Virus record (IMG/VR): IMGVR_UViG_2654587996_000008
DNA length: 14,413 nt
Source: a virus
Lineage: Duplodnaviria > Heunggongvirae > Uroviricota > Caudoviricetes
Strand: one strand, 5' to 3'
Shown: positions 2,155 to 14,413 of the stretch, piece by piece
How positions within the stretch are numbered: the stretch's first letter is position 1
How the letters are laid out: every line of letters begins with the position of its first letter
Translations under genes and position numbers: made by a program
The notes under the pieces: generated by a model
Database searches by the model: none
Told to the model about the DNA's origin: nothing
The model's input: the letters and a program-made list of their open reading frames with translations, nothing else

Positions 2155-2348
2155 AAAACAACACAAGCTATCTGATGAATAGGTTGATCCCGTTTTTAAG
2201 TAATCACCTCAGCAAACAACAATTACTTACTGAAGCAACTGTAACTTAGAGCGCGTACGACCAAAAACCCCGCTAGCGGTGCCGATGAGTGACAAGTTTT
2301 GACAGGTGCATCAAACGATCTGCACATGAAATTTTCTAAAGCGGCGCG

Positions 2349-2606
2349 GTTGACACTTTCCGGCTTAAGACCTTAATAAATCTTAATATCGCAGGTTGAC
2401 ACACTTGACACTTTTTCGCGAAAAACCTTAGCATTTCTAAGCATGGCAACTTGACATTTTTCGCGGTTTTTTCGGCTTTTTGACGTGGTAAATCTGGCAC
2501 AAACCCAGTAATTGCGGGGCTTACAGCGAGGTTGACACTTTTTCGCGTTCAGAGTGTAAAGTGTCAACCTGGCAAGCTTGCCAGCTGCTCAACTTGACAC
2601 TTTTTG
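2349..2606 (+). repeat. Array of direct repeats, consensus about TTGACACTTTTTCGCG, plus one inverted copy and a 16-bp palindrome
   Basis: Copies at 2349-2360, 2395-2402, 2405-2420, 2451-2466, 2480-2485 (degenerate), 2531-2547 and 2594-2606; inverted 'GTGTCAAC' at 2561-2568; perfect palindrome 'CTGGCAAGCTTGCCAG' at 2569-2584. Spacing is irregular. Confidence 0.7.
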
Positions 2607-2609
2607 ATG

Positions 2610-3137
2610 TCATTGATGGTCTGATTTTTCCCACTCAGCCAGGGCGTTTAACCCGGCTTCACTCCATGATTCCGGTTCATCGGGATAATCACCTGCAACA
2701 TAGCAGAGTTCGCAACGCAGCATACGAATTGCCAGCCTGGCATTACCTCGCAAATTGTATTTTTCAAAGTAATGCTGCCCTTCATCATCCTCAAGGCAGA
2801 TAGCACCATCATCAAGAAAGTGCACTTCCCAGCCTAATTCCCCGGCTGCATACAGCACACGCTGCTGTATGCCCTCGTCCGTTACTGGCGCAGGAATTTT
2901 ACCGTCTCTGGCCTTAACTGCTTTCCAGAACTCGCCCCATGTCATTTCCAGCGTTCTTTCTGGCCACATTTCAGAAATGGTGTCTTTCCCCTGTGCTGGT
3001 GGGCTGTTCCGCTGCTCTGTCGCTTCCACATCAATTTTTTTACCGGACATGACCACTTCGCCTTTCTCGAGCCAGTCGTAAACTGTCTGGCGGCTTACGC
3101 CTTTGTATTTGGCGTATTCGGCTTTACTCATCAACAT
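2610..3137 (-). CDS. Nu1-like winged-HTH DNA-binding protein (possible terminase-small-subunit-like / packaging-redirection protein)
   Basis: About 175 aa from the ATG at 3137 (SD 'GAGGTG' 7 nt upstream; the ORF track's earlier ATG at 3155 lacks an SD). N-terminus 'MSKAEYAKYKGVSRQTVYDWLEKGEVV' resembles lambda Nu1 'KKQLADIFGASIRTIQNWQEQGMPV'. The repeat array lies immediately 3'. Confidence 0.5.
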   Translation of the reverse strand: MLMSKAEYAKYKGVSRQTVYDWLEKGEVVMSGKKIDVEATEQRNSPPAQGKDTISEMWPERTLEMTWGEFWKAVKARDGKIPAPVTDEGIQQRVLYAAGELGWEVHFLDDGAICLEDDEGQHYFEKYNLRGNARLAIRMLRCELCYVAGDYPDEPESWSEAGLNALAEWEKSDHQ

Positions 3138-3236
3138 GTAGCTCACCTCATGCATATACGATAAAAAATAATTTCATGCGGAAAGGGAATGCGTTGTGGG
3201 TATGGAGGAAAGGGGCAATAACCGCCCCTTACTGAT

Positions 3237-3509
3237 TCAGTTGCGCCAGGATGGCTGGCTAAGCGTGGTTTTCATTACATCATTGACGACCTGTTTTACG
3301 ATTTCTGTGTTGGCAGTCGTGCTTTCAACATCAACAAAGCCATAATCGCCAATTTCCACCGTCAGGGATTCCAGTTTCTTCCCTAGAGCATCAGGCAACT
3401 CTCCACTGAACCGGTGCTGAAGATTTTCCACCAGCAACGCCCTGAATGCCTCGCTGTTCTCTTTTTTCTGCCATAGCTGGCGTTTATCCACTCTGATATT
3501 TAATTTCAC
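3237..3509 (-). CDS. Hypothetical protein (90 aa), coupled to the upstream RHH gene
   Basis: ATGA start/stop overlap with the upstream gene at 3506-3509. No recognised motif. Confidence 0.45.
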   Translation of the reverse strand: MKLNIRVDKRQLWQKKENSEAFRALLVENLQHRFSGELPDALGKKLESLTVEIGDYGFVDVESTTANTEIVKQVVNDVMKTTLSQPSWRN

Positions 3510-3673
3510 AGTCTCACCTCTTTAAGTGCCTTATCCATCAGTTGCCGAGCGATAACATGAATCGACGGTGCCACACCAAGCACAGATTTCTGACGCTCTT
3601 CGTCCTGGATGCGTTGCAGGGCTTCGATCTGCCTCCGGGAAAGTAAAACTGGCTTTACTCCGTGATTTTTCAT
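3506..3673 (-). CDS. Small ribbon-helix-helix-like DNA-binding protein (55 aa)
   Basis: ATG at 3673 with SD 'AAGGGA' 6 nt upstream. 'KPVLLSRRQIEALQRIQDEE...VLGVAPSIHVIARQLMDKAL' fits a beta-strand plus two helices. The longer 107-aa ORF-track form adds a Cys-rich N-terminus translated from AT-rich intergenic DNA and is rejected. Confidence 0.5.
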   Translation of the reverse strand: MKNHGVKPVLLSRRQIEALQRIQDEERQKSVLGVAPSIHVIARQLMDKALKEVRL

Positions 3674-3692
3674 GATGATCCCTTCTGAATGA

Positions 3693-3710
3693 CAATAATT
3701 GCAATTATTG
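3693..3710. promoter_or_regulatory. 18-bp perfect palindrome CAATAATTGCAATTATTG (putative operator)
   Basis: Lies 20-37 bp upstream of the RHH gene start. A related partial copy 'ACAATTGCAATAA' sits at 3734-3746. Confidence 0.45.
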
Positions 3711-3951
3711 CACAAATTGAAATGATACCAGAGACAATTGCAATAAATGAAACGAAAAGCATCAATAAACCAACCTTCGGCACTGAATGCTCTGATTTTT
3801 CTGCAAAGGTATGGCAGATGTTGGTGCATGCAAACATAAAGGCAATAGCAGAAGAAACAGCGGGGAGTGAAAAGGGGAAGTTTTTATAAATACACGATTG
3901 TCGCCTCACTGCAGGTTAACAGCCACAAGCTCCATGATAATAACTTGTTAA

Positions 3952-4275
3952 TTATTTCATCAGATTTTTCATTATTTGCGCGATTGAATACACAAGCAAA
4001 AACTCGGCAGCCGCAAGAGTATAAAAAACATAAATTCGCTTAGCCCACCGACGATGAAAGAACTCCTCAGCATGGCCGGATGTTCGAGATACAAGCCATG
4101 CACCTACTGCACACAGAGCAGGTGCAATGAGCACAGTTATAAACCAGATTGTGATGCCCATCCCATGCCTACTGATAATAGCCATTGGTATTGCAAAAAT
4201 GAATGTTAGAGCAGCATTAGCTAATAGAATATCTTTTAAAGTATTTTCAATTAGTTTTTCTAGATTATCTTTCAT
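3952..4275 (-). CDS. Small integral membrane protein (107 aa, 2-3 predicted TM helices)
   Basis: Hydrophobic stretches 'LLANAALTFIFAIPMAIISRHGMGITIWFITVLIAPALCAVGAWLV' and 'IYVFYTLAAAEFLLVYSIAQIM'. ATG at 4275 is preceded by a G-rich SD. Confidence 0.55.
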   Translation of the reverse strand: MKDNLEKLIENTLKDILLANAALTFIFAIPMAIISRHGMGITIWFITVLIAPALCAVGAWLVSRTSGHAEEFFHRRWAKRIYVFYTLAAAEFLLVYSIAQIMKNLMK

Positions 4276-4298
4276 CTAATCCCCCCCGTTGAACATTA

Positions 4299-4326
4299 AT
4301 ATATAAAAGCCCCTTACTAAGGGGCT
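4299..4326 (-). terminator. Intrinsic terminator after the lipoprotein gene
   Basis: 8-bp stem (4308-4315 'AGCCCCTT' pairing 4319-4326 'AAGGGGCT') with a 3-nt loop, followed on the minus strand by 'TTTATATATT'. It sits between the lipoprotein stop (4340) and the membrane-protein start (4275). Confidence 0.5.
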
Positions 4327-4339
4327 TTGCACGGATTGT

Positions 4340-5482
4340 TTAAAGGGAACTTTTTTTCGCCCCTTCAATTTCTGCCTGACAAATTTCGTCATTTGTAAAT
4401 GAGTACTGCAGATAGACATATCCCTGAGTGGAATTGTTCGCTCTGGCCTCAATAGATATAGTATCAATATTGTTTTTTAATGGTATTTCTTTTGTTCCCT
4501 TCCATGTGGCAGATAAGAAGCGTTCTTTTTTGTTTAGCCCCCTCATCCAGTCCTGAGGATCTTTCCAAATTGAACCAGCCAGCAAAAAGTCTGTAGTATC
4601 AGCCTTTCCATACAGAGAACTTAAAGAATTACTCAATTCTTCAAACTTGGATTTAAGAGCCAATCCATAGCTATCAGTATCAATATTTTTTCCTAAAGCC
4701 CGTATTTGACATAAACCAGCTTTCGGGGAGATCAACAAACCATACATTTCAAAATCTGCGTTTTGCTTCGGTAATTTATCAGAAGTATACAGATTCACAC
4801 TGTCTGGTAGTGGCTTGAGCTTAGCACCGATCATATCTTCGATGTTTTTCTGTGTAAGACCGGCTTCTAAGCCAAACGGACCATCCGCTGGCGGGAGTAA
4901 AGGAAGTTGCTCTTGGGAATTTTTGGCTGTTACTTCCGTTTCAGTACTGTTTTTTGCGTCATTATCTTGTACTGATGCCAGCTTAACTTCAGCGAGGCCA
5001 TACTTGGCTGTGAGGTACTTTTGCTGCAACATTGCCATGGTCTGCTCTTCAGTGGCAACAGTAGATAATTTTAGTACCTTTATCAGACCACCACTATACT
5101 GACGAGCATCAGCTTTGGCTTCGTTGATTTTTGCATCTAAGCTGTCAATTTCAGTTTTAATTGAAGCCGCAAGCTCAGGATCAGGTTTTACTCCAGATAC
5201 AACAACATCAATTTTGGCGCCTGATTCAATAGCATTAATACGCTGTTCCAAAAGCGCTTTATTAGTTCCTAATATTTCCAGTCTTGCTGTTGTCAGATTT
5301 TTTATCAACCCACCAGAAAACTGCTGGTCAACTTCCTTAGCTGCTGATATTTCACCTTCCGTTTGCGATAGTTCAGCTTTAAGAGCCGCTACTTCCTGTT
5401 TCTGTTCTGGAGTTAACTCTTCTGGCCCACATCCGGTTAACATTACTATACCGACTAATGTTGCAATTAAAGTTTTATTCAT
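4340..5482 (-). CDS. Lipoprotein (380 aa) with internal repeats
   Basis: Signal peptide and lipobox 'MNKTLIATLVGIVMLTGC'. Repeated 'Q[FY]SGGLIK' motif and coiled-coil-like central region. Function unknown. Confidence 0.65.
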   Translation of the reverse strand: MNKTLIATLVGIVMLTGCGPEELTPEQKQEVAALKAELSQTEGEISAAKEVDQQFSGGLIKNLTTARLEILGTNKALLEQRINAIESGAKIDVVVSGVKPDPELAASIKTEIDSLDAKINEAKADARQYSGGLIKVLKLSTVATEEQTMAMLQQKYLTAKYGLAEVKLASVQDNDAKNSTETEVTAKNSQEQLPLLPPADGPFGLEAGLTQKNIEDMIGAKLKPLPDSVNLYTSDKLPKQNADFEMYGLLISPKAGLCQIRALGKNIDTDSYGLALKSKFEELSNSLSSLYGKADTTDFLLAGSIWKDPQDWMRGLNKKERFLSATWKGTKEIPLKNNIDTISIEARANNSTQGYVYLQYSFTNDEICQAEIEGAKKSSL

Positions 5483-5616
5483 ATCCCTATTCCAAATGAA
5501 AATATTCAGATTAATCTTATCAGGAACCCAGATGCAATTGAATATTCATCTGCTCAGCAACGTAGTAGCTTTCCTCAGAAAGCATCAACAAAAAACCAAG
5601 AGAATCCCATCCTCTG

Positions 5617-5904
5617 TTACTGACTACAATTGTTCTTTTTTTGGTATTTCCTGAATGCCTCACCATTGGGCTGATGTAATCCCATCCCGACATGTGCCCG
5701 GCAGATGGTTTTGCGCATCTCCCCGAAATTATCCTGCCTTGCTGGTGGGCGTGCTGCCTTGTGGATACATTCCGCGCGACGTTTTGCCGCCTGTTCCCGT
5801 GCCTTGTCATCATTCGCCAGCATGATGACCTCAGCCCACCGCGCCGCCGCTCTGCGGTACAGGCCACGCGCTTCCAGTGCTTCCGCTTTACTGTCCTGAA
5901 TCAT
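5617..5904 (-). CDS. PerC-family transcriptional regulator (Pch-like)
   Basis: 95 aa. 'KAEALEARGLYRRAAARWAEV' matches the conserved PerC/Pch N-terminal motif as I recall it. SD 'AGGAGG' upstream; ATGA overlap with the upstream stop. Confidence 0.65.
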   Translation of the reverse strand: MIQDSKAEALEARGLYRRAAARWAEVIMLANDDKAREQAAKRRAECIHKAARPPARQDNFGEMRKTICRAHVGMGLHQPNGEAFRKYQKKNNCSQ

Positions 5905-6479
5905 GCACCTGTTACCTCCTTTGCTGCCCGGCGCTGACGTTTGCGCTTCTCATTCAGCGCCACCAGCCGCGTTTCTGCCTCCTGCTGTTCCTGTGGTGTC
6001 ACTTCCCCACATGGCTGGCCTTTCAGGTCGTAGCGTACCCCACCAGCCATTAAGGCGCGGTAATAGCGCGGACACTGCGCATAAGATGCCAGCGTCGCAC
6101 GTAATGCCCCTGGCCCGAATGCCAGCCCCCTGACGGCGAGGTTCTGCATCAGGTCGTCGAATATCCCCACCTTAAGCGGCTTCGGTGCTTCCCGGCTGAA
6201 TAAGTCAGGCCACAACTCAGTAAGGCGGTTAACGCGCCTGCGGTTTTTTCGCTGCCGTTTGGTCATATGCCGCCACGGTGTCGCCCCTGTGGGCTTTTGC
6301 TGCGCTTTCTGGTTACCGGGCATCACTTTATGTGCCGATGTGGTTTTATCCTGCTCCTGCGTCGCCTGCGTCGTTTTCTGCGGCGTGCCGTAAATGCCTT
6401 TCGGTTTTCTGTTAATGGTCAGCTTAGTCATGCTTTGCCCCATCGTTTTTACTGGTTGTTTCATATCCGGTACTTTCAT
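5901..6479 (-). CDS. ProQ/FinO-domain RNA-binding protein
   Basis: 192 aa. 'KPLKVGIFDDL...LRATLASYAQCPRYYRALMAGGVRYDLKGQPCGEVT' parallels E. coli ProQ 'RPLKIGIFQDL...[36 protein letters not shown]', preceded by a basic Lys/Arg/Gln-rich N-terminus. The exact start is uncertain among several in-frame ATGs. Confidence 0.65.
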   Translation of the reverse strand: MKVPDMKQPVKTMGQSMTKLTINRKPKGIYGTPQKTTQATQEQDKTTSAHKVMPGNQKAQQKPTGATPWRHMTKRQRKNRRRVNRLTELWPDLFSREAPKPLKVGIFDDLMQNLAVRGLAFGPGALRATLASYAQCPRYYRALMAGGVRYDLKGQPCGEVTPQEQQEAETRLVALNEKRKRQRRAAKEVTGA

Positions 6480-6484
6480 CTTCT

Positions 6485-6770
6485 GGGTAGAGGGGTAGAC
6501 GGCGGGTAGATAACAAAAAATAGTCCTCTACCCACTTAACATAATGAAAAAAAACAACTTTCACACATTAGGTAGAGGGGTAGACCGTAAAATAGAAAAG
6601 TTTGAAACTTACTTTCTTACAATCTGTGTTTTCCTCTCGCTGTGTAAAAAGTTTTTTGAGCGGGGATGTTGTCTACCCCTCTACCCATTTCTCTGAAAGC
6701 CTTGTGCCACAAGAGATTCAGCGGGTAGACAATAAAAAATCACCATCTACCCTGTGTCTACCCATCTACC
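6485..6770. repeat. Iteron-type replication origin (multiple GGGTAGA / TCTACCC heptamers flanking AT-rich spacers)
   Basis: Direct copies at 6485-6500 ('GGGTAGAGGGGTAGAC'), 6504-6510, 6571-6586 and 6723-6730; inverted copies at 6527-6533, 6671-6687, 6746-6752, 6756-6763 and 6765-6770. AT-rich stretches at about 6535-6570 and 6587-6660. Immediately 3' of the primase gene. Confidence 0.65.
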
Positions 6771-6787
6771 TGTTACGGGTATTACTC

Positions 6788-8536
6788 TTATAAAAATTCC
6801 TCGGTTCTCTCCGTTTGTATAACGTTGGTTTGTATTCGTCCTTTAAAACCTCTTGTCAGGTATTCAGCCCCATATTCTCTTGCTGCTGACTTCATGGCCT
6901 TACCAAAATCACCGACACTTAATATTTCTTCTTCCCCCATATACTCCATAAAGGCGAGATATAGTCTGTACAGGCTTGTACGCGGATTAAGATCAGTTAA
7001 TCTCTTACCGCCTCCCATCATCATCCCATGCGGTTCATCAAGAAATGCAAGCGCCGCACATAACCCAATGACAGGATCAGTTTCCTGTTTTATTTTCAGA
7101 GCTTCGGCACCGTCGCGCTGCTCCAACAATAATTCCCGTGCTTTTTCTGGATCGGAAAAGTTAGCCAGTAATCGACGAATAATGACAGGTATTTCCGCCG
7201 CTATCTTTTGCGGTAACTCTTTATCCTTTTCGGTCTCCCTTACAATATTATCGAACCGAAAAATTACACGTCGACGCGCAACGCCTCCGGCCCGTTCGGT
7301 GAATGTCATCGGCACGTTATTTGTTGCCAGCACGACGGACCTGATAATTGTTGTGAAACGCTTTTCATATTTCGGGTTAATTTCAACTGGATCTCCACCC
7401 GTTATTTTTTTGATGCCGGATCCTTCACCTGTATATTTCGGCTGGTCTGCCAGGACAATAAGACGACTTCCGACAACCTGCGCACGCCCGCCAGCATCAT
7501 CAAGTGATGTCATTTCAGCGCTTACCGTGTTCTGTTTCCCTGCCAGAAGGGTGGCTATGTGCGTGATTGTGCTCTTGCCGCTCCCACCTTCCCCTGTGGC
7601 CTCAATAAACATCTGCCAGTCGTACCGGTTCGCCATAATCATGTACAGCGCGGCGCATATACGCATCATCTTTCGCGGGTCTTTTCCTGCGGCGTGATCA
7701 AGCCATTTATGAAAGTTTGGCGCGTTGTCGCGGATGTTCTCCCCTGGTACTGGTGGCGTGTACTCAATGCCGTTATGCGTGGTGATCCAGTTATCCGGCG
7801 AGTGCGGGGAAAATTCGCCAGTTTTCATGTCAAGCACGCCATTAGAGAACGGCAATAAATCACCTGACGGCTCCCCCATTGGCCTGGCCATAACTTTTAA
7901 AGCATCCACTGTATTACTTATTGCTCTCCGACTAAATGATGTTCCGTTTTCTTCGTAAATAGCCACCATTTCACGACTAAGATCCAGTGTGCTTACCGGA
8001 ACCCAAAAATCATCGCGCCAGACGTGAACAACCTCACTCTCCTGATTCATTGCTACATCCTGAAATCGTTCAGCTAAAAGTTTTGCCCTTTGGCTGTCCG
8101 CCATTCTGGAAAGAGATATTTTGTGTTTTTTCTCGGTCCTTCCTGACAGAATTTCTCCGCGCTCAGCCTGTCCGCGGATCCGTTGCAAGTAGTCGCGCCA
8201 GTTCTCCGGCTCCCGGTCGGTGATACCTTTGTATAATTTCGCCTCCTGTACGCCAGCCAGCGCCAGCTTTTCAGCGATAGCATTGATCTGGATTGGTTCG
8301 ATCTCTCCCGCGAGATAGACACGCGCAAAGCGGCGTTTCTCGTCAATAATGCGGATATTCGCCAGGTCTGCCAGTTGCTTTGGCCCCAGGTAAACAGGTG
8401 GTACGTTATCGCCGTGTTTTCGTCCTTCGCTTTCAATCCAGTGTTGAGCATGGGAGTAAGCGTCCGCCCCGGCAAAAATGATTACCTCTGTGAATTTATC
8501 CTTCGGCTGATATTTTAAATTCGGTGCGTTTTTCAC
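6788..8536 (-). CDS. P4-family primase/helicase (D5-like, Walker A P-loop)
   Basis: 582 aa with Walker A 'GEGGSGKST' and a phage/plasmid primase C-terminal-type region. GTG start at 8536 with SD 'GGAGG' 7 nt upstream; GTGA overlap with the upstream ORF. Confidence 0.85.
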   Translation of the reverse strand: MKNAPNLKYQPKDKFTEVIIFAGADAYSHAQHWIESEGRKHGDNVPPVYLGPKQLADLANIRIIDEKRRFARVYLAGEIEPIQINAIAEKLALAGVQEAKLYKGITDREPENWRDYLQRIRGQAERGEILSGRTEKKHKISLSRMADSQRAKLLAERFQDVAMNQESEVVHVWRDDFWVPVSTLDLSREMVAIYEENGTSFSRRAISNTVDALKVMARPMGEPSGDLLPFSNGVLDMKTGEFSPHSPDNWITTHNGIEYTPPVPGENIRDNAPNFHKWLDHAAGKDPRKMMRICAALYMIMANRYDWQMFIEATGEGGSGKSTITHIATLLAGKQNTVSAEMTSLDDAGGRAQVVGSRLIVLADQPKYTGEGSGIKKITGGDPVEINPKYEKRFTTIIRSVVLATNNVPMTFTERAGGVARRRVIFRFDNIVRETEKDKELPQKIAAEIPVIIRRLLANFSDPEKARELLLEQRDGAEALKIKQETDPVIGLCAALAFLDEPHGMMMGGGKRLTDLNPRTSLYRLYLAFMEYMGEEEILSVGDFGKAMKSAAREYGAEYLTRGFKGRIQTNVIQTERTEEFL

Positions 8537-8823
8537 TTCTTACCTCCCGCAACCAACATTGCCCGGATTTTTTTAATATTCTTGGCTGCACGTCTCGCCA
8601 CCGCCTGTTGTTTGTTTTCAACCAGAATAAAATCACGCTCAAACTGACGACGCGGCATTACGCAGTCATATTCGTAAGCCTCACGGCGGTAGGTGATATT
8701 GCCTGGCGTAACGTGACGAATAACCACTCGTCCCCCACGTCTGGTGTCGCGGTAAATATCTCCGTGTCTGATTTCAGGCCGAGAGAGACCGCTGGCAGTA
8801 AAGCCAGAATTTTTCTTTTTCAT
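8533..8823 (-). CDS. Hypothetical small basic protein (96 aa)
   Basis: SD 'AGGAAA' upstream of the ATG at 8823; coupled to the primase start. Confidence 0.5.
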   Translation of the reverse strand: MKKKNSGFTASGLSRPEIRHGDIYRDTRRGGRVVIRHVTPGNITYRREAYEYDCVMPRRQFERDFILVENKQQAVARRAAKNIKKIRAMLVAGGKK

Positions 8824-8827
8824 GGTT

Positions 8828-9028
8828 TTATTTTCCTGTCAGCAGTTCCGGTTTTATTTCCGCACGAATACAGAGTTCAGAAAAAAATTCAGGAGAACCA
8901 ACAATCTCATTACTTTTCAGTCGGCATTGTGATTTCACTTTCCCTTTATCCAGGTAAACCAGTACGCGTCCGGTGAAATCATCTGGCACATTAAGCACTA
9001 CGGGTACATGCGCTTCATGATTATGCAT
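8828..9028 (-). CDS. Hypothetical protein (66 aa)
   Basis: SD 'GGAGGA' upstream; ATGCATAA overlap with the preceding ORF. Confidence 0.45.
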   Translation of the reverse strand: MHNHEAHVPVVLNVPDDFTGRVLVYLDKGKVKSQCRLKSNEIVGSPEFFSELCIRAEIKPELLTGK

Positions 9029-9254
9029 GGCTTACATCCTCCGTGAATTTTCTTCTGTAACGCGCCTCTGCCACATATTCCGCATAGTCCGACGCAATAC
9101 TAAGAATCATTTCACCCTCTGACTTGTAGCCATTGGTATTGATAAGAAAATATGCAGCTTTCATCATATCAGCAACGCTTAACAATGCGCCCGCTGTATC
9201 TTCCGGTGCGCCATCAAACTCCTGTTTCAGGGAATTAAAACGATCATCACGCAT
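9021..9254 (-). CDS. Hypothetical protein (77 aa)
   Basis: G-rich SD upstream of the ATG at 9254; 8-nt overlap with the upstream ORF. Confidence 0.45.
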   Translation of the reverse strand: MRDDRFNSLKQEFDGAPEDTAGALLSVADMMKAAYFLINTNGYKSEGEMILSIASDYAEYVAEARYRRKFTEDVSHA

Positions 9255-9612
9255 GTTTACCCCCCTGAATGACCTGATAACCGCAACTGGTCAGCAATTC
9301 GATAAATTCCGGCAATGTGCCGAAACAGTAATCATCACGCAGACGTTCGCGGGATACTTCAACGCCGTTTTCGTAGTGACTCACCATACACCCGGTAAAA
9401 CGCAGATCATCATCGTGATGGCACGTTGACGGCTTAATCAGTCGCGCACGCTCCGCCAGTTCCAGCAATGCTTCAACGCTTCCGGCAATTGCACCATCCG
9501 GCAGGTGATAATTACTTACTACGCGTCCATTCTCTACATTGACCAGTAGCTGCCCGGTAAATTTCTCATCAAACTGAATGCTGTTAAGGTCAGAAATAGA
9601 CGAATTATGCAT
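9247..9612 (-). CDS. Hypothetical protein (121 aa)
   Basis: ATG at 9612 is preceded by a perfect 'AGGAGG' 6 nt upstream; the ORF-track ATG at 9630 is rejected. ATGCATAA overlap with the upstream ORF. Confidence 0.5.
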   Translation of the reverse strand: MHNSSISDLNSIQFDEKFTGQLLVNVENGRVVSNYHLPDGAIAGSVEALLELAERARLIKPSTCHHDDDLRFTGCMVSHYENGVEVSRERLRDDYCFGTLPEFIELLTSCGYQVIQGGKHA

Positions 9613-9829
9613 GGTGCACCTCCTGCACATCAGCCATGATAATTTTTCCGGCCTTATCCAGTGCCTGATCGGCTTTTAGCTGCACAAATGCTAAATAATG
9701 GGAGATGCATTCTGATTCTCTGACTGCGTGTTTATGCGCCACACCAGCGATAGCTGAAATCTCAATAAGTGAATCCATCAGCGTTTTGATAGCGTCTACC
9801 GCTGCATCAGGCCATGTTGCATTACACAT
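9605..9829 (-). CDS. Hypothetical protein (74 aa)
   Basis: SD 'AGGAGG' upstream of the ATG at 9829; ATGTGTAA overlap with the upstream ORF. Confidence 0.45.
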   Translation of the reverse strand: MCNATWPDAAVDAIKTLMDSLIEISAIAGVAHKHAVRESECISHYLAFVQLKADQALDKAGKIIMADVQEVHHA

Positions 9830-10025
9830 GCTCCACCTCCTGGCGAATACGGGCAGCGAATACCATCACGCAGCCATCAGGGGATTGCTGGCGTGCTTCC
9901 TGTTCGCTGGTGGCCTCGATGTGAATTACGCGCGGTTGTGCTGTGCTCAGGGCGATAAAACGCCAGATGTATTTATTCAGGTTGTGCGAGTCCCGCCCTT
10001 GCGGGTGTGTGGTATGATTTCTCAT
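9822..10025 (-). CDS. Hypothetical protein (67 aa), first gene of the replication operon
   Basis: Internal ATG of the long stop-free frame, at 10025, with SD 'GAGGT' 5 nt upstream. Translation 'MRNHTTHPQGRDSHNLNKYIWRF...'. Confidence 0.45.
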   Translation of the reverse strand: MRNHTTHPQGRDSHNLNKYIWRFIALSTAQPRVIHIEATSEQEARQQSPDGCVMVFAARIRQEVEHV

Positions 10026-10122
10026 AGCTACCTCGATACTGTTGCTATCGTTGGTGGTTAGAAGCCCGGTTAGTGTTAGCGCACTGCCGGGTTTCGTCGT
10101 TTCTGCACCTTGCATCAACAAG

Positions 10123-10174
10123 GTGTTGAACACCAATTTAAACCTAGGTGTTAAACACGTCAAGTGTTGAACAC
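10123..10174. promoter_or_regulatory. Three 11-bp palindromic operator-like sites GTGTT(G/A)AACAC in a divergent control region
   Basis: Sites at 10123-10133, 10148-10158 and 10164-10174. The third overlaps a plus-strand -35-like 'TTGAAC' (10167-10172), with -10-like 'CATACT' (10190-10195) upstream of the RHH gene. Confidence 0.55.
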
Positions 10175-10224
10175 TTGTTTTTTTTCCTGCATACTGCATT
10201 TGTTTTTTGTGAGGGGGACACAAC

Positions 10225-10404
10225 ATGGCGACAAAAGCAGTAAACGCAAAATCACAAACAGTTGCGGCAAGGGTTCCGCATGAAGTTATGAACAATGTTG
10301 AGGCGGTAAAAATGCCTGGTGAAAGTACAGGGCAGTTTGTAACAGCAGCATTAAAGCGAGAAGTTGAGTACCGCCAGCGGCGCAAGGCCAAAGAACAGGA
10401 GTAA
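10225..10404 (+). CDS. Small ribbon-helix-helix-like regulator (59 aa), not in the ORF track
   Basis: ATG at 10225 with strong SD 'GAGGGGG'. Translation 'MATKAVNAKSQTVAARVPHEVMNNVEAVKMPGESTGQFVTAALKREVEYRQRRKAKEQE' fits a beta-strand plus two helices. The only clearly plus-strand gene, divergent from the replication operon. Confidence 0.5.
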   Translation: MATKAVNAKSQTVAARVPHEVMNNVEAVKMPGESTGQFVTAALKREVEYRQRRKAKEQE

Positions 10405-10661
10405 CCATCACCAGCGCCGTGGTGTGAGGAACGACGGTGCATCGTTTTACAGGGCAGCGCCATGACCAACAAAGAATCAACCAATACACCATCACCGGCC
10501 CGGAAAAGACAGCGCAGAAAGATAGCGTACGAGTATGAGTCAGACAGATTCGCGCCCTGTGCGTTTATCCTTGAGAATTTCCTTAAAGAGTACAGGCGCA
10601 CAAAAATGGGGTCGCATACCTGGAAAACATCGCGACATGGCAATGTTAAAGAGCCGGAATA

Positions 10662-11084
10662 GCCCACCAGCAAGCCAGCACACTGATCACATTGCCCACC
10701 AGCCGCAAATCTGGCATTGTTGGCGATGTGTTCAAGTGTGTAGCTTTCCCACTGGTGGCCCTCTGCGGTCGCCTTTGTTTTATCCAGAACGAAATCAGAC
10801 ATCAGATTAATCAGCACCTGGCGACCTGACAAAAACGCATCAGTCGCGCCACCAGCAAAATTTTTTGCTTTCCGGACAGCGTGACCAACGACATTTTGCA
10901 GCAAAATATTCTGCATTTCTGGCGTGCTGTAGTAACGGTGATCAGCGCCTTCACTCTGTGCGACCACAACGCTATAATCTGCCTCGTAGACAGTAAGCAA
11001 TATGGCGCAGTAGGCTATTCGTTCACAAAGGCGCTCCGGCAACGGGGCGCTTTCTCTTTTTGTAACGGTCAGAGCGTTACACAT
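10662..11084 (-). CDS. Hypothetical protein, 5' portion only; 3' end undefined (possible disrupted gene)
   Basis: ATG at 11084 overlaps the antirepressor stop (ATGTGTAA). The first ~140 residues look protein-like, but the frame then runs stop-free through regulatory DNA to 9822, so the true end cannot be set. The end coordinate is arbitrary. Confidence 0.25.
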
Positions 11085-11925
11085 GGCTGTTTTCCTCCAT
11101 GCGACGGGCTAACCAACGCTGCGAAAGACGAATTAATTCAGCTTTCCGCTGGTGGTAGCCCTGGCCTAACTCAATCAGCGTGATATTGCTCTGCTCAAGG
11201 TAAGAAAGGTGCTCAAGCTGCAACGTGCTCATGTGGTCGCGTGGTTCGCCTGTGATGCCGTTCGCCTGCGCCCACTGTTTTGCAGTCATGCCACCCAGCA
11301 CGATACGCGCCAGCATATTGGCTTCCGTGGTGTAGTGGTGCTGGAACGTGTTTTTATCCAGTTCAGCCCGGTACGCCTCCAGCGCGGCACACATTGGCTT
11401 AAAGTAGCTGGCAACTGTGATACGGGCTTTCATTTCCCGGCGTAACGCTGCGGAACGCACTGGCGCTACCTTGTGTAGCTCCTCCTCGCATTTGATGAAG
11501 TACTGACGAACGGCGCGGCCCTGTTCGGTGCGTTCGACCATCGCCAGTTCTTTCGCCATGTTCGTGGAGATCAAATAGTCTTCACTGCGACGATCACCGC
11601 CGCGCTTTGTTGTCCAATCAGAATCAAACTGTTCAATATTTACACTTTGGTTCCCCCATTTCGGGGAATCAAAGTACAAATTTTCTACAACTTCAAAATC
11701 CACACCCTTTTTAAATCCGTACTCATCAATGCGTCCTTTAATCCAGGTTGTGAAATCACGACCTACCCCGAGCGCCTTATGCGACGCTCTGGCGCTAACA
11801 ATATTGGTTTCACGCCCGCCAATAACGCCGGAAATAACCGGGATAATTTCGCCAAAATTTTGCAGATTCTGGTTTTCAGGCCGAACGAAGCCCTGCCCCT
11901 GTACGGGCGTTTTTCGCAGTTTCAT
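11077..11925 (-). CDS. Phage antirepressor-like protein (AntA-type N-terminal domain plus KilA-C-type C-terminal domain)
   Basis: 282 aa with SD 'AGGAG' upstream. 'SARASHKALGVGRDFTTWIKGRI' and 'MAKELAMVERTEQGRAVRQYFIKCEEEL' match antirepressor domain signatures as I recall them. Confidence 0.6.
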   Translation of the reverse strand: MKLRKTPVQGQGFVRPENQNLQNFGEIIPVISGVIGGRETNIVSARASHKALGVGRDFTTWIKGRIDEYGFKKGVDFEVVENLYFDSPKWGNQSVNIEQFDSDWTTKRGGDRRSEDYLISTNMAKELAMVERTEQGRAVRQYFIKCEEELHKVAPVRSAALRREMKARITVASYFKPMCAALEAYRAELDKNTFQHHYTTEANMLARIVLGGMTAKQWAQANGITGEPRDHMSTLQLEHLSYLEQSNITLIELGQGYHQRKAELIRLSQRWLARRMEENSHV

Positions 11926-12002
11926 AAAAACTCCTGCTATCGAATTAAGTTACTTTTGTTTGCTGGTGGATAGTTGGGGCTTCTGGCCCCGTAGCCATTT
12001 AA

Positions 12003-12200
12003 TCAGGTAGCTGTTCCGCGTGATTCCGCAATACGCTGATTAATCCACTCGTCAATTTCACTCTCAACGAAAGCAATCGCTCGCGAGCCAATTTTTACAG
12101 GTTTAGGAAAACGCCCTTGGGCAATGAGTTTATAGATCCATGCCCTTCCATACCCTGTACGGCGCATGGTTTCTGGCATACGAATTAAAGATTGTGACAT
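12003..12200 (-). CDS. alpA: AlpA-family transcriptional regulator / excisionase-like protein
   Basis: About 65 aa from the ATG at 12200 (SD 'GGGAGA' upstream). 'IRMPETMRRTGYGRAWIYKLIAQGRFPKPVKIGSRAIAFVESEIDEWINQR' is the AlpA-type HTH signature. The ORF-track N-terminal extension is rejected. Confidence 0.75.
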   Translation of the reverse strand: MSQSLIRMPETMRRTGYGRAWIYKLIAQGRFPKPVKIGSRAIAFVESEIDEWINQRIAESRGTAT

Positions 12201-12266
12201 GATAATCGTCTCCCGTTGTTTATTGATGCCTACGGGAGACATTGAAGCAGGTAAGACATTGGATAT

Positions 12267-12303
12267 CACCGCAATTGCGGTGAATGATACCGCAATTGCG
12301 GTA
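12267..12303. promoter_or_regulatory. Tandem 16-bp perfect palindromes CACCGCAATTGCGGTG and TACCGCAATTGCGGTA (operator-like)
   Basis: At 12267-12282 and 12288-12303, centres 21 bp apart, between the 251-aa gene stop (12315) and the alpA start (12200). Confidence 0.55.
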
Positions 12304-12314
12304 TAGGACTACAA

Positions 12315-13070
12315 CTACGATTTAATTGATTTATTGGCTTCAGCAAACTTTGCTTCCAGCGTTCTTGAACTCATCCCCGGCTTACCTTCAAAATGCCCCA
12401 ATAAATTACTAATAATAGAGCTTTGATTTTCGAATACAGATTGCTTAATACCAGCAGGTGAACGCCCTAACATTAGAAAAAGCAACCCTCCAATAATGTT
12501 TAAATATGTTGTTTCAGAACGTTGGTCAATGTTTTGCACGGAGTTATCAACCATTCGTCGTAGTGAATCACGTTCCCCTTGTAATTCGGAAATTTCATTT
12601 TTCTGCTGTTGAAAAGTCTTCATAGCATTATCTAAGCGAATATTAAGACGTTTGTTTTCAGCCTGAAGAGTTTGATATGCCTCGACTGTAATTCCAGCAT
12701 GTAACTGCTGCTCAACAGCATCAAAAAGGAAAGCTGGTTTTTGGTTGGGATAGTTTTTTGACATCCATGATTTCAGATCGGAATGACGGACGGTTAAACG
12801 GTGCTTAGCAACCTGTTCTCCAGGTTGAACAGTTTTACCATCACGACCATAAGGAATTTCACAATTATTGATTGCATCTAAAATTTTCTCAGCATTAACA
12901 CGCAAGCAAGGCCATTGAGGGAACATTCCAACGCTAGGTAAAACTCCATCTCCCACTCGCTCCAATATTAAAACTTCATGAGCAATTAAATTACACCAAC
13001 GTAGCGCCGCTTCAATTGGAGTGTAATATGCCTTTTCAAGAGAACTACAGCTTTTTGAATTGTAAGTCAC
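12315..13070 (-). CDS. Uncharacterised protein (251 aa) with central coiled-coil-like segment
   Basis: Apparent GTG start at 13070 with SD 'GAGGT' upstream. Heptad-like region 'QTLQAENKRLNIRLDNAMKTFQQQKNEISELQGERDSLRRM'. No family recognised. Confidence 0.5.
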   Translation of the reverse strand: MTYNSKSCSSLEKAYYTPIEAALRWCNLIAHEVLILERVGDGVLPSVGMFPQWPCLRVNAEKILDAINNCEIPYGRDGKTVQPGEQVAKHRLTVRHSDLKSWMSKNYPNQKPAFLFDAVEQQLHAGITVEAYQTLQAENKRLNIRLDNAMKTFQQQKNEISELQGERDSLRRMVDNSVQNIDQRSETTYLNIIGGLLFLMLGRSPAGIKQSVFENQSSIISNLLGHFEGKPGMSSRTLEAKFAEANKSIKS

Positions 13071-13198
13071 TCTGTGCTACCTCGCACCCTCTGTAAAAGT
13101 GGCTGTGCCAGCCCGCAGAGGTGTACGGGTTTTCAGGAGCGACCCTAGACACAGCCTTTTCTTAATCGCTCAAAGTCTACTACTGTATACTCAACCAG

Positions 13199-14413
13199 TC
13201 ACCCGCATTTTCCGAACTCACCATGCACCACATTTCCGCCATGCTCGAGCGAATCCATATAGTCGGCATACCACTGGAGCATCTCCCGGCGACCATCCAG
13301 ATATTGCGCATGGTTGTATGTGCCACGAATTGAGTTTTTATCGACGTGTGCAAGCTGTGTCTCTATCCACGCGGTGTTATAGCCCTGCTCATGCAAAATG
13401 GTGCTCATGGTGTGCCGGAATCCATGACCAGTAACCTTTCCGTTATAGCCGATGCGTTTAAATACTTGGTTTATGCTAGCCTCGCTCATTGTTTTCCTTG
13501 GATCATTACGGCCGGGAAACATAAGCGGATAATTGCCAGTTAATTCTTTAATCTGCCCAATAAGCGAAAGAGCCTGCTCAGACAAAGGCACCACATGAGG
13601 GCGACGCATTTTCATCCGTGAAGCAGGTATCTCCCAGATAGCCTTGTTGAGATCGATTTCATCCCATAATGCACCGCGCAGTTCGCCAGTCCGCAAACCG
13701 GTGATAATCAGTAGACGAGCCGCCATAACAACCAATGCACTTCCTGAGTAACTGGACAATGCCTTGAAAAAATCAGGTAATTCTTTGGCTGTGAGGAAAG
13801 GATAATGACTAGATTCATGACCTTGCATCGCGCTGGTGAGATCCGGTGCAGGGTTATACTCAGCACGTCCAGTGACAATTGCATAGCGGAAAACTTCCCC
13901 GCATCGCTGCCTCACTTTTTTGGCTTTTTCGGTAGCACCGCGCCCCTCGATGCGCCGCAGCACATTCAGCAGTTCAAGTGGTTTGATTTCGGCGATTGGT
14001 TTTTTGCCAATGTAAGGGAACACATCTTTGTTGAAGGCTTCGAGGATGTCTGAAGCATAACCAGCAGACCATTTTTTTAATTTGCTGCTGTGCCACTCAA
14101 TGGCAATATCTTTGAAGGTGTTGTTTAACTGCGTTTCCCGGGCAATCTTTTCCTCTCGTTTCGCTTCCATCGGATCGATACCCCCAGCGATACTCCTTTT
14201 AGCTTCTTCACGTTTTGCACGAGCATCAGCCAAGGTAACTTCAGGATACACACCTAGTGCTAACAGCTTCTCTTTACCAGCTACACGATACTTGAAGCGC
14301 CAATATTTTCCTCCACTAGGTTTTACCAAGAGATACAGACCACCACCATCAGCCAGCTTGTAAGCCTTCTCTTTTGGCTTGGCAGTGTCTATTTGACGGG
14401 CATTGAGTTTCAC
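13199..14413 (-). CDS. int: P4-type tyrosine integrase (site-specific recombinase)
   Basis: 404 aa. N-terminus 'KLNARQIDTAKPKEKAYKLADGGGLYLLVKPSGGKYWRFKYR' is typical of P4/CP4-57-type integrases; C-terminus has 'HGFRHT' and 'RGTYNHA' (catalytic Tyr region). Apparent GTG start sits exactly at the window edge, so the N-terminus may be slightly truncated. Confidence 0.9.
   Translation of the reverse strand: MKLNARQIDTAKPKEKAYKLADGGGLYLLVKPSGGKYWRFKYRVAGKEKLLALGVYPEVTLADARAKREEAKRSIAGGIDPMEAKREEKIARETQLNNTFKDIAIEWHSSKLKKWSAGYASDILEAFNKDVFPYIGKKPIAEIKPLELLNVLRRIEGRGATEKAKKVRQRCGEVFRYAIVTGRAEYNPAPDLTSAMQGHESSHYPFLTAKELPDFFKALSSYSGSALVVMAARLLIITGLRTGELRGALWDEIDLNKAIWEIPASRMKMRRPHVVPLSEQALSLIGQIKELTGNYPLMFPGRNDPRKTMSEASINQVFKRIGYNGKVTGHGFRHTMSTILHEQGYNTAWIETQLAHVDKNSIRGTYNHAQYLDGRREMLQWYADYMDSLEHGGNVVHGEFGKCG

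Follow-up and report, generated by a model that had tools for sequence, protein, structure and literature searches.

A mirror-symmetric iteron cluster 3' of a Pri-Rep-type gene as the probable origin of replication in a phage-inducible chromosomal island of Gram-negative bacteria

The iteron cluster and the adjacent initiator gene

The DNA described here is a 14,413-bp stretch of the IMG/VR virus record IMGVR_UViG_2654587996_000008 (Caudoviricetes), referred to as the window, and all coordinates are those of the window unless a comparison locus is named (these fetched loci carry L-numbers, such as L015). Between 6485 and 6771 it contains a cluster of short repeats (iterons) that very probably, judging from its relatives, constitutes the vegetative replication origin of an Escherichia coli phage-inducible chromosomal island (PICI), of the Gram-negative kind known from the island EcCICFT073. 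Genes throughout this neighbourhood are on the minus strand and, in the direction of transcription, a 582-aa gene of the Pri-Rep type (8536->6788), which codes for an initiator/helicase annotated as 'DNA primase family' or DUF5906, is followed by a 308-bp gap, a ProQ/FinO gene (6479->5901) and a PerC-family gene. The cluster occupies this gap and begins 16 nt past the stop codon of the initiator gene (6788-8536, minus strand), that is, directly 3' of a primase-type gene, where an earlier note made from the sequence alone had placed it.

The earlier note had also reported at least ten copies of the heptamer GGGTAGA/TCTACCC in both orientations, and the window indeed holds ten exact copies, five per strand, all of them within 6485-6763 (about 280 bp). 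The expected number is 0.85 (standard deviation 1.0, maximum 5) and none of 200 dinucleotide shuffles reaches ten, so that the repeats are real and chance is excluded. A scan allowing one mismatch adds two copies only, AGGTAGA (6570-6576) and TCTACCT (6765-6771), to a total of 12, and the hexamer GGTAGA is likewise present 12 times within 6486-6770, with a single further copy in the window at 9795. The several tandem units that had been described amount to four, of which two are exact (6485-6500 and, inverted, 6671-6686), one includes a variant copy (6570-6585) and one is an inverted variant (6756-6771). Each island has a single GGTAGA cluster, no second one having been found in the window or when L001, L002 and EcCICFT073 were examined as complete islands. 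The exact cluster is rare, being present in 9 of 5,426 complete Escherichia coli genomes (three near-identical copies and six of the type found in strain cq9), and a scan of IMG/VR with the 15-mer doublet gave 13 matches, of which three (the source contig and two sister islands) have the full array; the remaining ten are isolated chance doublets, with no phage carrying the array among them.

When the gaps between hexamer cores are read in the direction of the initiator gene, the order is + 2 + 5 + 16 - 38 + 2 + [87] - 2 - 38 + 16 - 5 - 2 -. The cluster is, thus, a perfect mirror, composed of two six-iteron arms whose tandem doublets face an 87-bp core. Arm B, proximal to the ProQ gene (6485-6584; hexamer gaps of 2, 5, 16, 38 and 2), contains GGGTAGA at 6485, 6493 and 6504 (+), TCTACCC at 6527 (-), AGGTAGA at 6570 and GGGTAGA at 6578 (both +). 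Arm A, proximal to the initiator gene (6672-6771), is its mirror image, with TCTACCC at 6672 and 6680 (-), GGGTAGA at 6723 (+), and TCTACCC at 6746 and 6757 followed by TCTACCT at 6765 (all -), and it shares 63% identity with the reverse complement of arm B. The central core (6585-6671), which lies between the two inward-facing doublets, contains no degenerate heptamer with one mismatch.

The two AT-rich stretches that the iterons had been said to flank can be recognised in part: the left part of the core (6586-6625) has 20% GC and is a candidate unwinding region by composition and nearest-neighbour stability, and the spacer of arm B (6534-6570), with 22% GC, is a second candidate for easy melting, but the core as a whole has 36% GC. 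With 44% GC, the spacer of arm A (6687-6722), mirror partner of the arm B spacer, cannot be called AT-rich. A value of 25% GC is found in two 16-bp A-tracts (6511-6526 and 6730-6745). The inner doublet of arm A is followed, at a distance of about 13 nt, by a conserved A/T box, AAAAAACTTTTTA (read in the initiator-gene direction; 6645-6657, minus strand), which also follows the equivalent doublets in the islands of cq9, EcCICFT073, strain 472, Serratia and Morganella (the last three being L008, L005 and L006) and in both crr repeats of phage P4. The box is a putative functional element.

The initiator protein matches the Pfam families D5_N (residues 151-281), DUF5906 (residues 314-420, the P-loop region of superfamily 3, or SF3, helicases) and, weakly, Pox_D5 (residues 514-563), as well as the NCBIfam model TIGR01613 (P4-family primase C-terminal domain), with 104 bits, just below the cut-off of 108.7 bits. 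Its SF3 helicase core (residues 224-440; 7217-7867, minus strand) is matched by phmmer to PDB 7OLA, the self-loading helicase PriRep of SaPI5 (E=1.8e-13), and residues 486-576 (6809-7081, minus strand) to PDB 1KA8, the origin-binding domain of the P4 alpha protein (E=7.9e-9), so this C-terminal winged-helix domain is predicted to be the reader of the iterons. The N-terminal domain (residues 1-130; 8147-8536, minus strand) has a Toprim-like predicted fold and is exchangeable separately from the remaining protein; a homologue search with residues 1-150 yielded mostly fragments shorter than 260 aa and was used for the structure-prediction alignment only. The initiator was found to contain no catalytic primase motif that could be recognised, and E...DxD is not evident in residues 1-130. 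The primase activity implied by the name that the earlier note gave to this gene is unproven.

The same type of N-terminal domain is also found fused to AAA_25 (RepA-like) and DUF927 helicases, and the gene encoding it is always preceded by a DUF4222 gene, whose stop overlaps its start; the domain may be a shared priming or recruitment module.

Comparison with related islands and with known origins

The closest experimental reference is EcCICFT073, an island located in the CFT073 chromosome (L015 15931-26655) and composed of int, an AlpA-like helix-turn-helix (HTH) gene, an Icd-like gene, DUF4222, a 584-aa primase-family gene, a 288-bp gap and PerC. It has in common with the island in the window the skeleton int, alpA, Icd-like, DUF4222, pri-rep, ori and PerC. 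Its Pri-Rep protein is 70% identical to the initiator over the full length (582 aa), although the origin-binding domain is only about 56% identical, and the 288-bp gap immediately 3' of pri-rep contains 11 GGTAGA hexamers, in comparison with 12 here. In EcCICFT073, both pri and ori are needed to maintain a temperature-sensitive plasmid (Fillol-Salom et al. 2018, ISME J; PMC6092414, Fig. 2b). The published primers, which confirm the identity of pri-rep, map to the end of this gene: the pri-delta-ori construct stops at L015 22000, 4 nt past the stop codon, and the pri-ori construct ends at about L015 22307, which means that the tested ori is exactly this 288-bp gap.

Both arms are recognisably homologous between the two islands (67% identity between the B arms and 54% between the A arms, against 38-39% in cross-arm controls), and in both of them the A/T box follows the doublet of arm A. 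The arrangement is nevertheless different. In EcCICFT073 the pattern is - 3 - 40 + 16 - 5 - 3 - [25] + 5 + 16 - 40 + 3 +, that is, arm B and then arm A, with the doublets outermost and 25 bp, without a long central core, between the arms, whereas in the window the doublets face inward across 87 bp. The flanks of the iterons also differ (GGGTAGA-N-R-R here, R-GGTAGA-Y-A-G there), and so do the downstream genes, which are ProQ/FinO in the window and a hypothetical gene plus SSB in EcCICFT073. The cluster is a well-built but ordinary example of a known and experimentally characterised kind of origin, in which the two-arm arrangement differs from that of the tested example.

A non-coding gap of 290-400 bp is present 3' of the gene in each of 12 relatives, always with its own iteron core in both orientations and with 7-12 exact copies of it (6 for the 7-mer core of L011). 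The iteron is R-GGTAGA-Y-A in the cq9 type, GGTAGAGG in strain 472, TTGGTAGACAG in the type of Escherichia ruysiae and E. coli N921 (the replacement block of N921 carrying TGGTAGAC), GTGAACAGT in Serratia, ATGAACA in Morganella, which has a full P4-alpha-like protein of 794 aa, and GGTATACA in L011; an island with a DUF927 initiator instead uses GAGACAAC. A core of 86-95 bp is retained in cq9 (L002), E. ruysiae (L004) and N921 (L017) despite their differing origin-binding domains, and the 40-bp spacer equivalent to that of arm B is also AT-rich in arm B of EcCICFT073 and in P4 ori. In the cq9-type cluster, which is 77% identical to that of the window, 71 of 72 iteron-core positions are unchanged (99%), in comparison with 151 of 221 elsewhere (68%; Fisher p=3e-9), a difference that is a clear footprint of selection on the iterons. 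In the island of E. coli RM9088 (L007 4976-5380), which has the same backbone and a DUF927 initiator, 11 GAGACAA(C) iterons are laid out as a mirror (- - - 46 + + 81 - - - 47 + + +); here a different initiator class is combined with the same principle of origin design.

The strain N921 (L017) is also informative about how the iterons are inherited. By blastn, it is 95-97% identical to the window over 2348-6447 and 8150-14413, with no identity in between, so that a replication cassette (6448-8149, compared with L017 7064-8850) can be delimited, which consists of the iteron cluster and, from the initiator, the parts corresponding to D5_N, SF3 and the origin-binding domain. In N921, the cluster and residues ~130-582 were replaced together by unrelated DNA, the N-terminal domain staying with the backbone, and the right breakpoint of this swap falls inside the initiator gene, between residues 1-129 and D5_N. 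Homology with many other ProQ-PerC islands likewise ends at the edge of the cluster, at about 6481, and elsewhere the GGTAGA cluster precedes unlike genes, such as a hypothetical gene plus SSB in EcCICFT073 and hypothetical genes plus TerS in islands of the O157 type. The swap and these homology edges indicate that the iterons are inherited with the helicase/origin-binding part, and not with the N-terminal domain or the downstream genes.

The C-terminal domain of P4 alpha reportedly binds the type I iterons of both ori and crr (Ziegelin et al. 1993, 1995; Yeo et al. 2002). In the initiator studied here the C-terminal domain is, by homology, also the likely iteron binder, and not the N-terminal one. 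The electrophoretic mobility shift assay with the N-terminal domain that the earlier note had proposed was probably aimed at the wrong target, because the origin-binding homology is found at residues 486-576 and because N921 changes its iterons while keeping the N-terminal domain.

In cq9 and five E. coli strains from pig or baboon, a pseudogene of a RepA-family helicase lacking its N-terminus (L002 7111-7518) lies between the cluster and ProQ and looks like the remnant of an earlier replacement of the replication module.

P4 offers a second point of comparison. In the P4 record, the region immediately 3' of alpha is crr (4291-4590); the six type I repeats of ori are 4.5 kb away. The P4 ori array (core GTGAAC) reads + 4 + 5 + 16 - 37 + 4 + and an arm in the window reads + 2 + 5 + 16 - 38 + 2 +, both being composed of three direct iterons, 16 bp, one inverted iteron, an AT-rich spacer of 37-38 bp and two direct iterons. 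The array can be aligned colinearly with arm B at 57-64% identity, a value reached in none of 500 shuffles (z ~3.8-3.9), and the iterons themselves resemble each other (GGTAGACA in the window, GGTGAACA in P4). The type I iteron of P4, TGTTCACC, is not that of the window, which has GGGTAGA in place of (G)GTGAACA; the relatives L005 and L006 use GTGAACA and TGAACA. The Serratia relative combines the arm layout of EcCICFT073 with an iteron of the P4 type, suggesting that the arm scaffold is older than the iteron sequence. The initiators share an alpha-type winged-helix origin-binding C-terminus (1KA8) and a P4-family SF3 helicase, but in the protein in the window neither the zinc finger nor the catalytic Toprim primase region of alpha is recognisable. 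With crr, the cluster shares its position 3' of the initiator gene; on the other hand, there are no type II repeats here, and a single locus has two mirror arrays, where P4 has one ori array and a distant crr.

These correspondences lead us to favour, with some reserve, the view that the origin consists of two copies of a module structurally homologous to the whole type I array of P4 ori, in which the geometry was kept and the iteron drifted from GGTGAACA to GGTAGA, the modules being joinable in either order, as A-core-B (the window and the N921/E. ruysiae type) or as B-A (EcCICFT073, Shigella and Serratia). The layout of PICI origins has been regarded as unique and common to no other replicon (PMC6092414). 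No earlier description of P4-like geometry in PICI origins was found in the open-access literature, although one could exist elsewhere, and the correspondence is a modest refinement and not a new kind of origin. If true, it would unite PICI and P4 origins in one family, contrary to the published uniqueness (PMC6092414), and the arm orders would be natural variants for asking how two SF3 hexamers orient on loading.

A comparable plan is known from a Gram-positive lineage. In SaPIs, the pathogenicity islands of Staphylococcus aureus, the C-terminal winged helix of Rep reads iterons of 5-6 nt just downstream of rep, half of them on each side of an AT-rich region, and Rep loads itself, binding and melting the origin without ATP (PMC9371898). 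The cluster has in common with them its site directly downstream of the initiator gene, short iterons (6-12 in number) distributed over the two flanks of an AT-rich region, at least two per flank and oppositely directed, and an SF3 helicase with a core homologous to 7OLA and a C-terminal winged helix. SaPIs differ in belonging to a Gram-positive lineage and in their unrelated iteron sequences, and the detailed six-iteron arm geometry found here is that of P4.

The classic iteron origins of plasmids (pSC101, R6K, RK2, F and P1) contain iterons of 17-22 bp, mostly in direct tandem, and their Rep is a dimeric or monomeric winged-helix protein, not a helicase, which recruits both DnaA and DnaB; DnaA boxes and 13-mers lie close by. 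The likeness to them is limited to repeated initiator sites beside an AT-rich region and to a specificity matched to the cognate initiator, since the iterons in the window are of 6-8 bp, in both orientations and mirror-symmetric, and the initiator is itself an SF3 helicase. A scan for host-factor motifs found no consensus DnaA box and no IHF, Fis, GATC or 13-mer sites in the cluster (the best match to a DnaA box, 8/9, is TTTTACACA at 6641). The description 'classic iteron-origin architecture' has, thus, to be replaced by the P4/PICI/SaPI type, with 6-8-bp iterons and a self-loading SF3 helicase.

Interpretation of the cluster and competing explanations

The reading of the cluster as the origin of the island, located 3' of its initiator, which had already been suggested in the earlier note, is supported by the 70% identity with the EcCICFT073 protein, the P4-type origin-binding domain, the clusters of the relatives and the exchange of the cassette. 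By analogy with the characterised systems, induction by a helper phage would be followed by excision of the island and expression of the adjacent 582-aa protein, whose C-terminal winged helix (residues 486-576) would bind the twelve GGGTAGA iterons. The 87-bp core would then be flanked by SF3 helicase hexamers, placed there as a double hexamer by the two mirror six-iteron arms, and the DNA would melt in an AT-rich segment, which could be the left part of the core (6586-6625), the spacer of arm B (6534-6569) or the A/T box. The helicase would load itself, and replication, by whichever priming route, would proceed from there.

Several observations weigh against this interpretation. The arm order A-core-B is the reverse of the tested B-25 bp-A of EcCICFT073, so function is extrapolated across a rearrangement, and Pri-Rep-dependent replication is known for the EcCICFT073 homologue only. 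P4 does not initiate replication at the site directly 3' of alpha, which is crr. In addition, the AT-richness of the core is only moderate (36% GC) and no AT-rich segment of the cluster, by nearest-neighbour stability, ranks as the least stable DNA of the window. Finally, the priming step is left unexplained by an initiator in which the catalytic primase motif is not recognised.

The P4 precedent is the basis of an alternative explanation, in which the cluster is a crr-like element acting in cis, bound by the initiator and stimulating replication or controlling copy number (by looping or handcuffing), while initiation takes place elsewhere. Such an element would stand where crr stands in P4, immediately 3' of alpha and 4.5 kb from ori, and the A/T box after the doublet of arm A is shared with both P4 crr repeats. 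However, the window and the islands L001, L002 and EcCICFT073 have no other GGTAGA cluster, the arm geometry follows P4 ori and not crr, and in EcCICFT073 pri together with the 3' gap suffices for plasmid replication (PMC6092414), all of which makes a crr-like role unlikely. It is less probable still that the repeats are operators for a regulator (AlpA, PerC or another island protein) of the downstream ProQ/FinO-PerC operon. The cluster does end only 5-40 nt before the possible start codons of ProQ, and origins often double as regulatory regions. Nevertheless, the promoter scan detected no sigma-70-like promoter in 6300-6950, the repeats moved with the helicase/origin-binding cassette in an exchange that left the ProQ-PerC genes unchanged, and the same GGTAGA cluster precedes quite different genes in other islands. 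No minus-strand terminator is predicted between the initiator gene and ProQ (terminator-like matches are on the plus strand), which favours a regulatory role of the cluster to some extent; this lack of both terminator and promoter also indicates that the origin is probably transcribed through from upstream.

The least probable of the alternatives, to which we give very little credence, would make the cluster a signal for packaging or recombination (pac, cos or att-like) or else an artefact of chance or simple repeats. Somewhere in a PICI there are cos or pac sites, in which short inverted repeats are frequent, but the count statistics exclude chance, the iteron sequence changes with the origin-binding domain of the initiator and not with the integrase or packaging genes, and the IMG/VR doublet scan detected no phage carrying the array, ten of its 13 matches being isolated chance doublets.

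Taken as an origin, the cluster provides a precise and testable map of such an element in a satellite, in which twelve iterons form two arms around a core and the cognate reader is a C-terminal domain, and the cassette 6448-8149 would set the specificity of replication among E. coli PICIs. The P4-like arm geometry, together with both natural arm orders, could guide experiments on the assembly of self-loading SF3 helicases and help in designing satellite-based vectors that are compatible. These findings leave what is known of PICI replication as it was.

Island context and minor elements

Some other candidate elements of the cluster were considered and discarded. An imperfect palindrome in the spacer of arm A (6693-6721; CTGAAAGCCTTGTG c CACAAGAGATTCAG) folds weakly (-5 kcal/mol, z=-1.3) and was dropped as a structured element for this reason; its pairing is better in the cq9 alignment, and EcCICFT073 has a different, GC-rich hairpin at the equivalent position (z=-2.5). 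An RNA element in the cluster is unsupported, since an Rfam scan of the whole window with all families at E<=1 gave nothing in 6480-6790. Two plus-strand open reading frames (ORFs), 6544-6696 and 6602-6793, were rejected as coding because 1-nt indels occur throughout the cq9 alignment.

The remaining genes of the window are those of a PICI and include int (13199-14413), a gene for an AlpA-like protein of 88 aa (PHROG 66/2790), AntA, an Icd-like gene, DUF4222, PerC and a gene for a TerS-like HTH protein. Between the integrase and the next gene, an int-alpA RNA (Rfam RF02996) is found at 13087-13155 on the minus strand, with 49.8 bits, above the gathering score. Immediately upstream of the Icd-like ORF, a SymR-like antisense RNA is matched below threshold (10026-10098, plus strand; 32.9 bits, gathering score 61, E=0.005). 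The ORF of 420 aa at 9822-11084 is probably spurious, because relatives annotate only a short Icd-like gene at its 3' end and YlcI/YnfO on the other strand.

The gene immediately after the origin codes for an RNA chaperone of the ProQ/FinO family (5901-6479, minus strand). The first ATG is probably upstream of its true start, given that the islands of N921, E. ruysiae and cq9 share homology that has its beginning or end at about 6447-6464, and the gene is not tied to the origin, given that EcCICFT073 has SSB at this position. Further on, an accessory gene (4340-5482, minus strand) codes for a protein of 380 aa that has an N-terminus (LTGC) like that of a lipoprotein and matches nothing in Pfam or PHROG; it is found in N921 and absent from islands that have the same origin (L001).

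The window is identical end to end to the IMG/VR contig IMGVR_UViG_3300011840_000039 except for four bases (10329, 10835, 11704 and 12471). It ends exactly at gene boundaries (the start codon of int is at 14411-14413), so the attachment sites are excluded from it. In the closest complete genome, that of E. coli N921, the island adjoins tRNA-Thr and proA.

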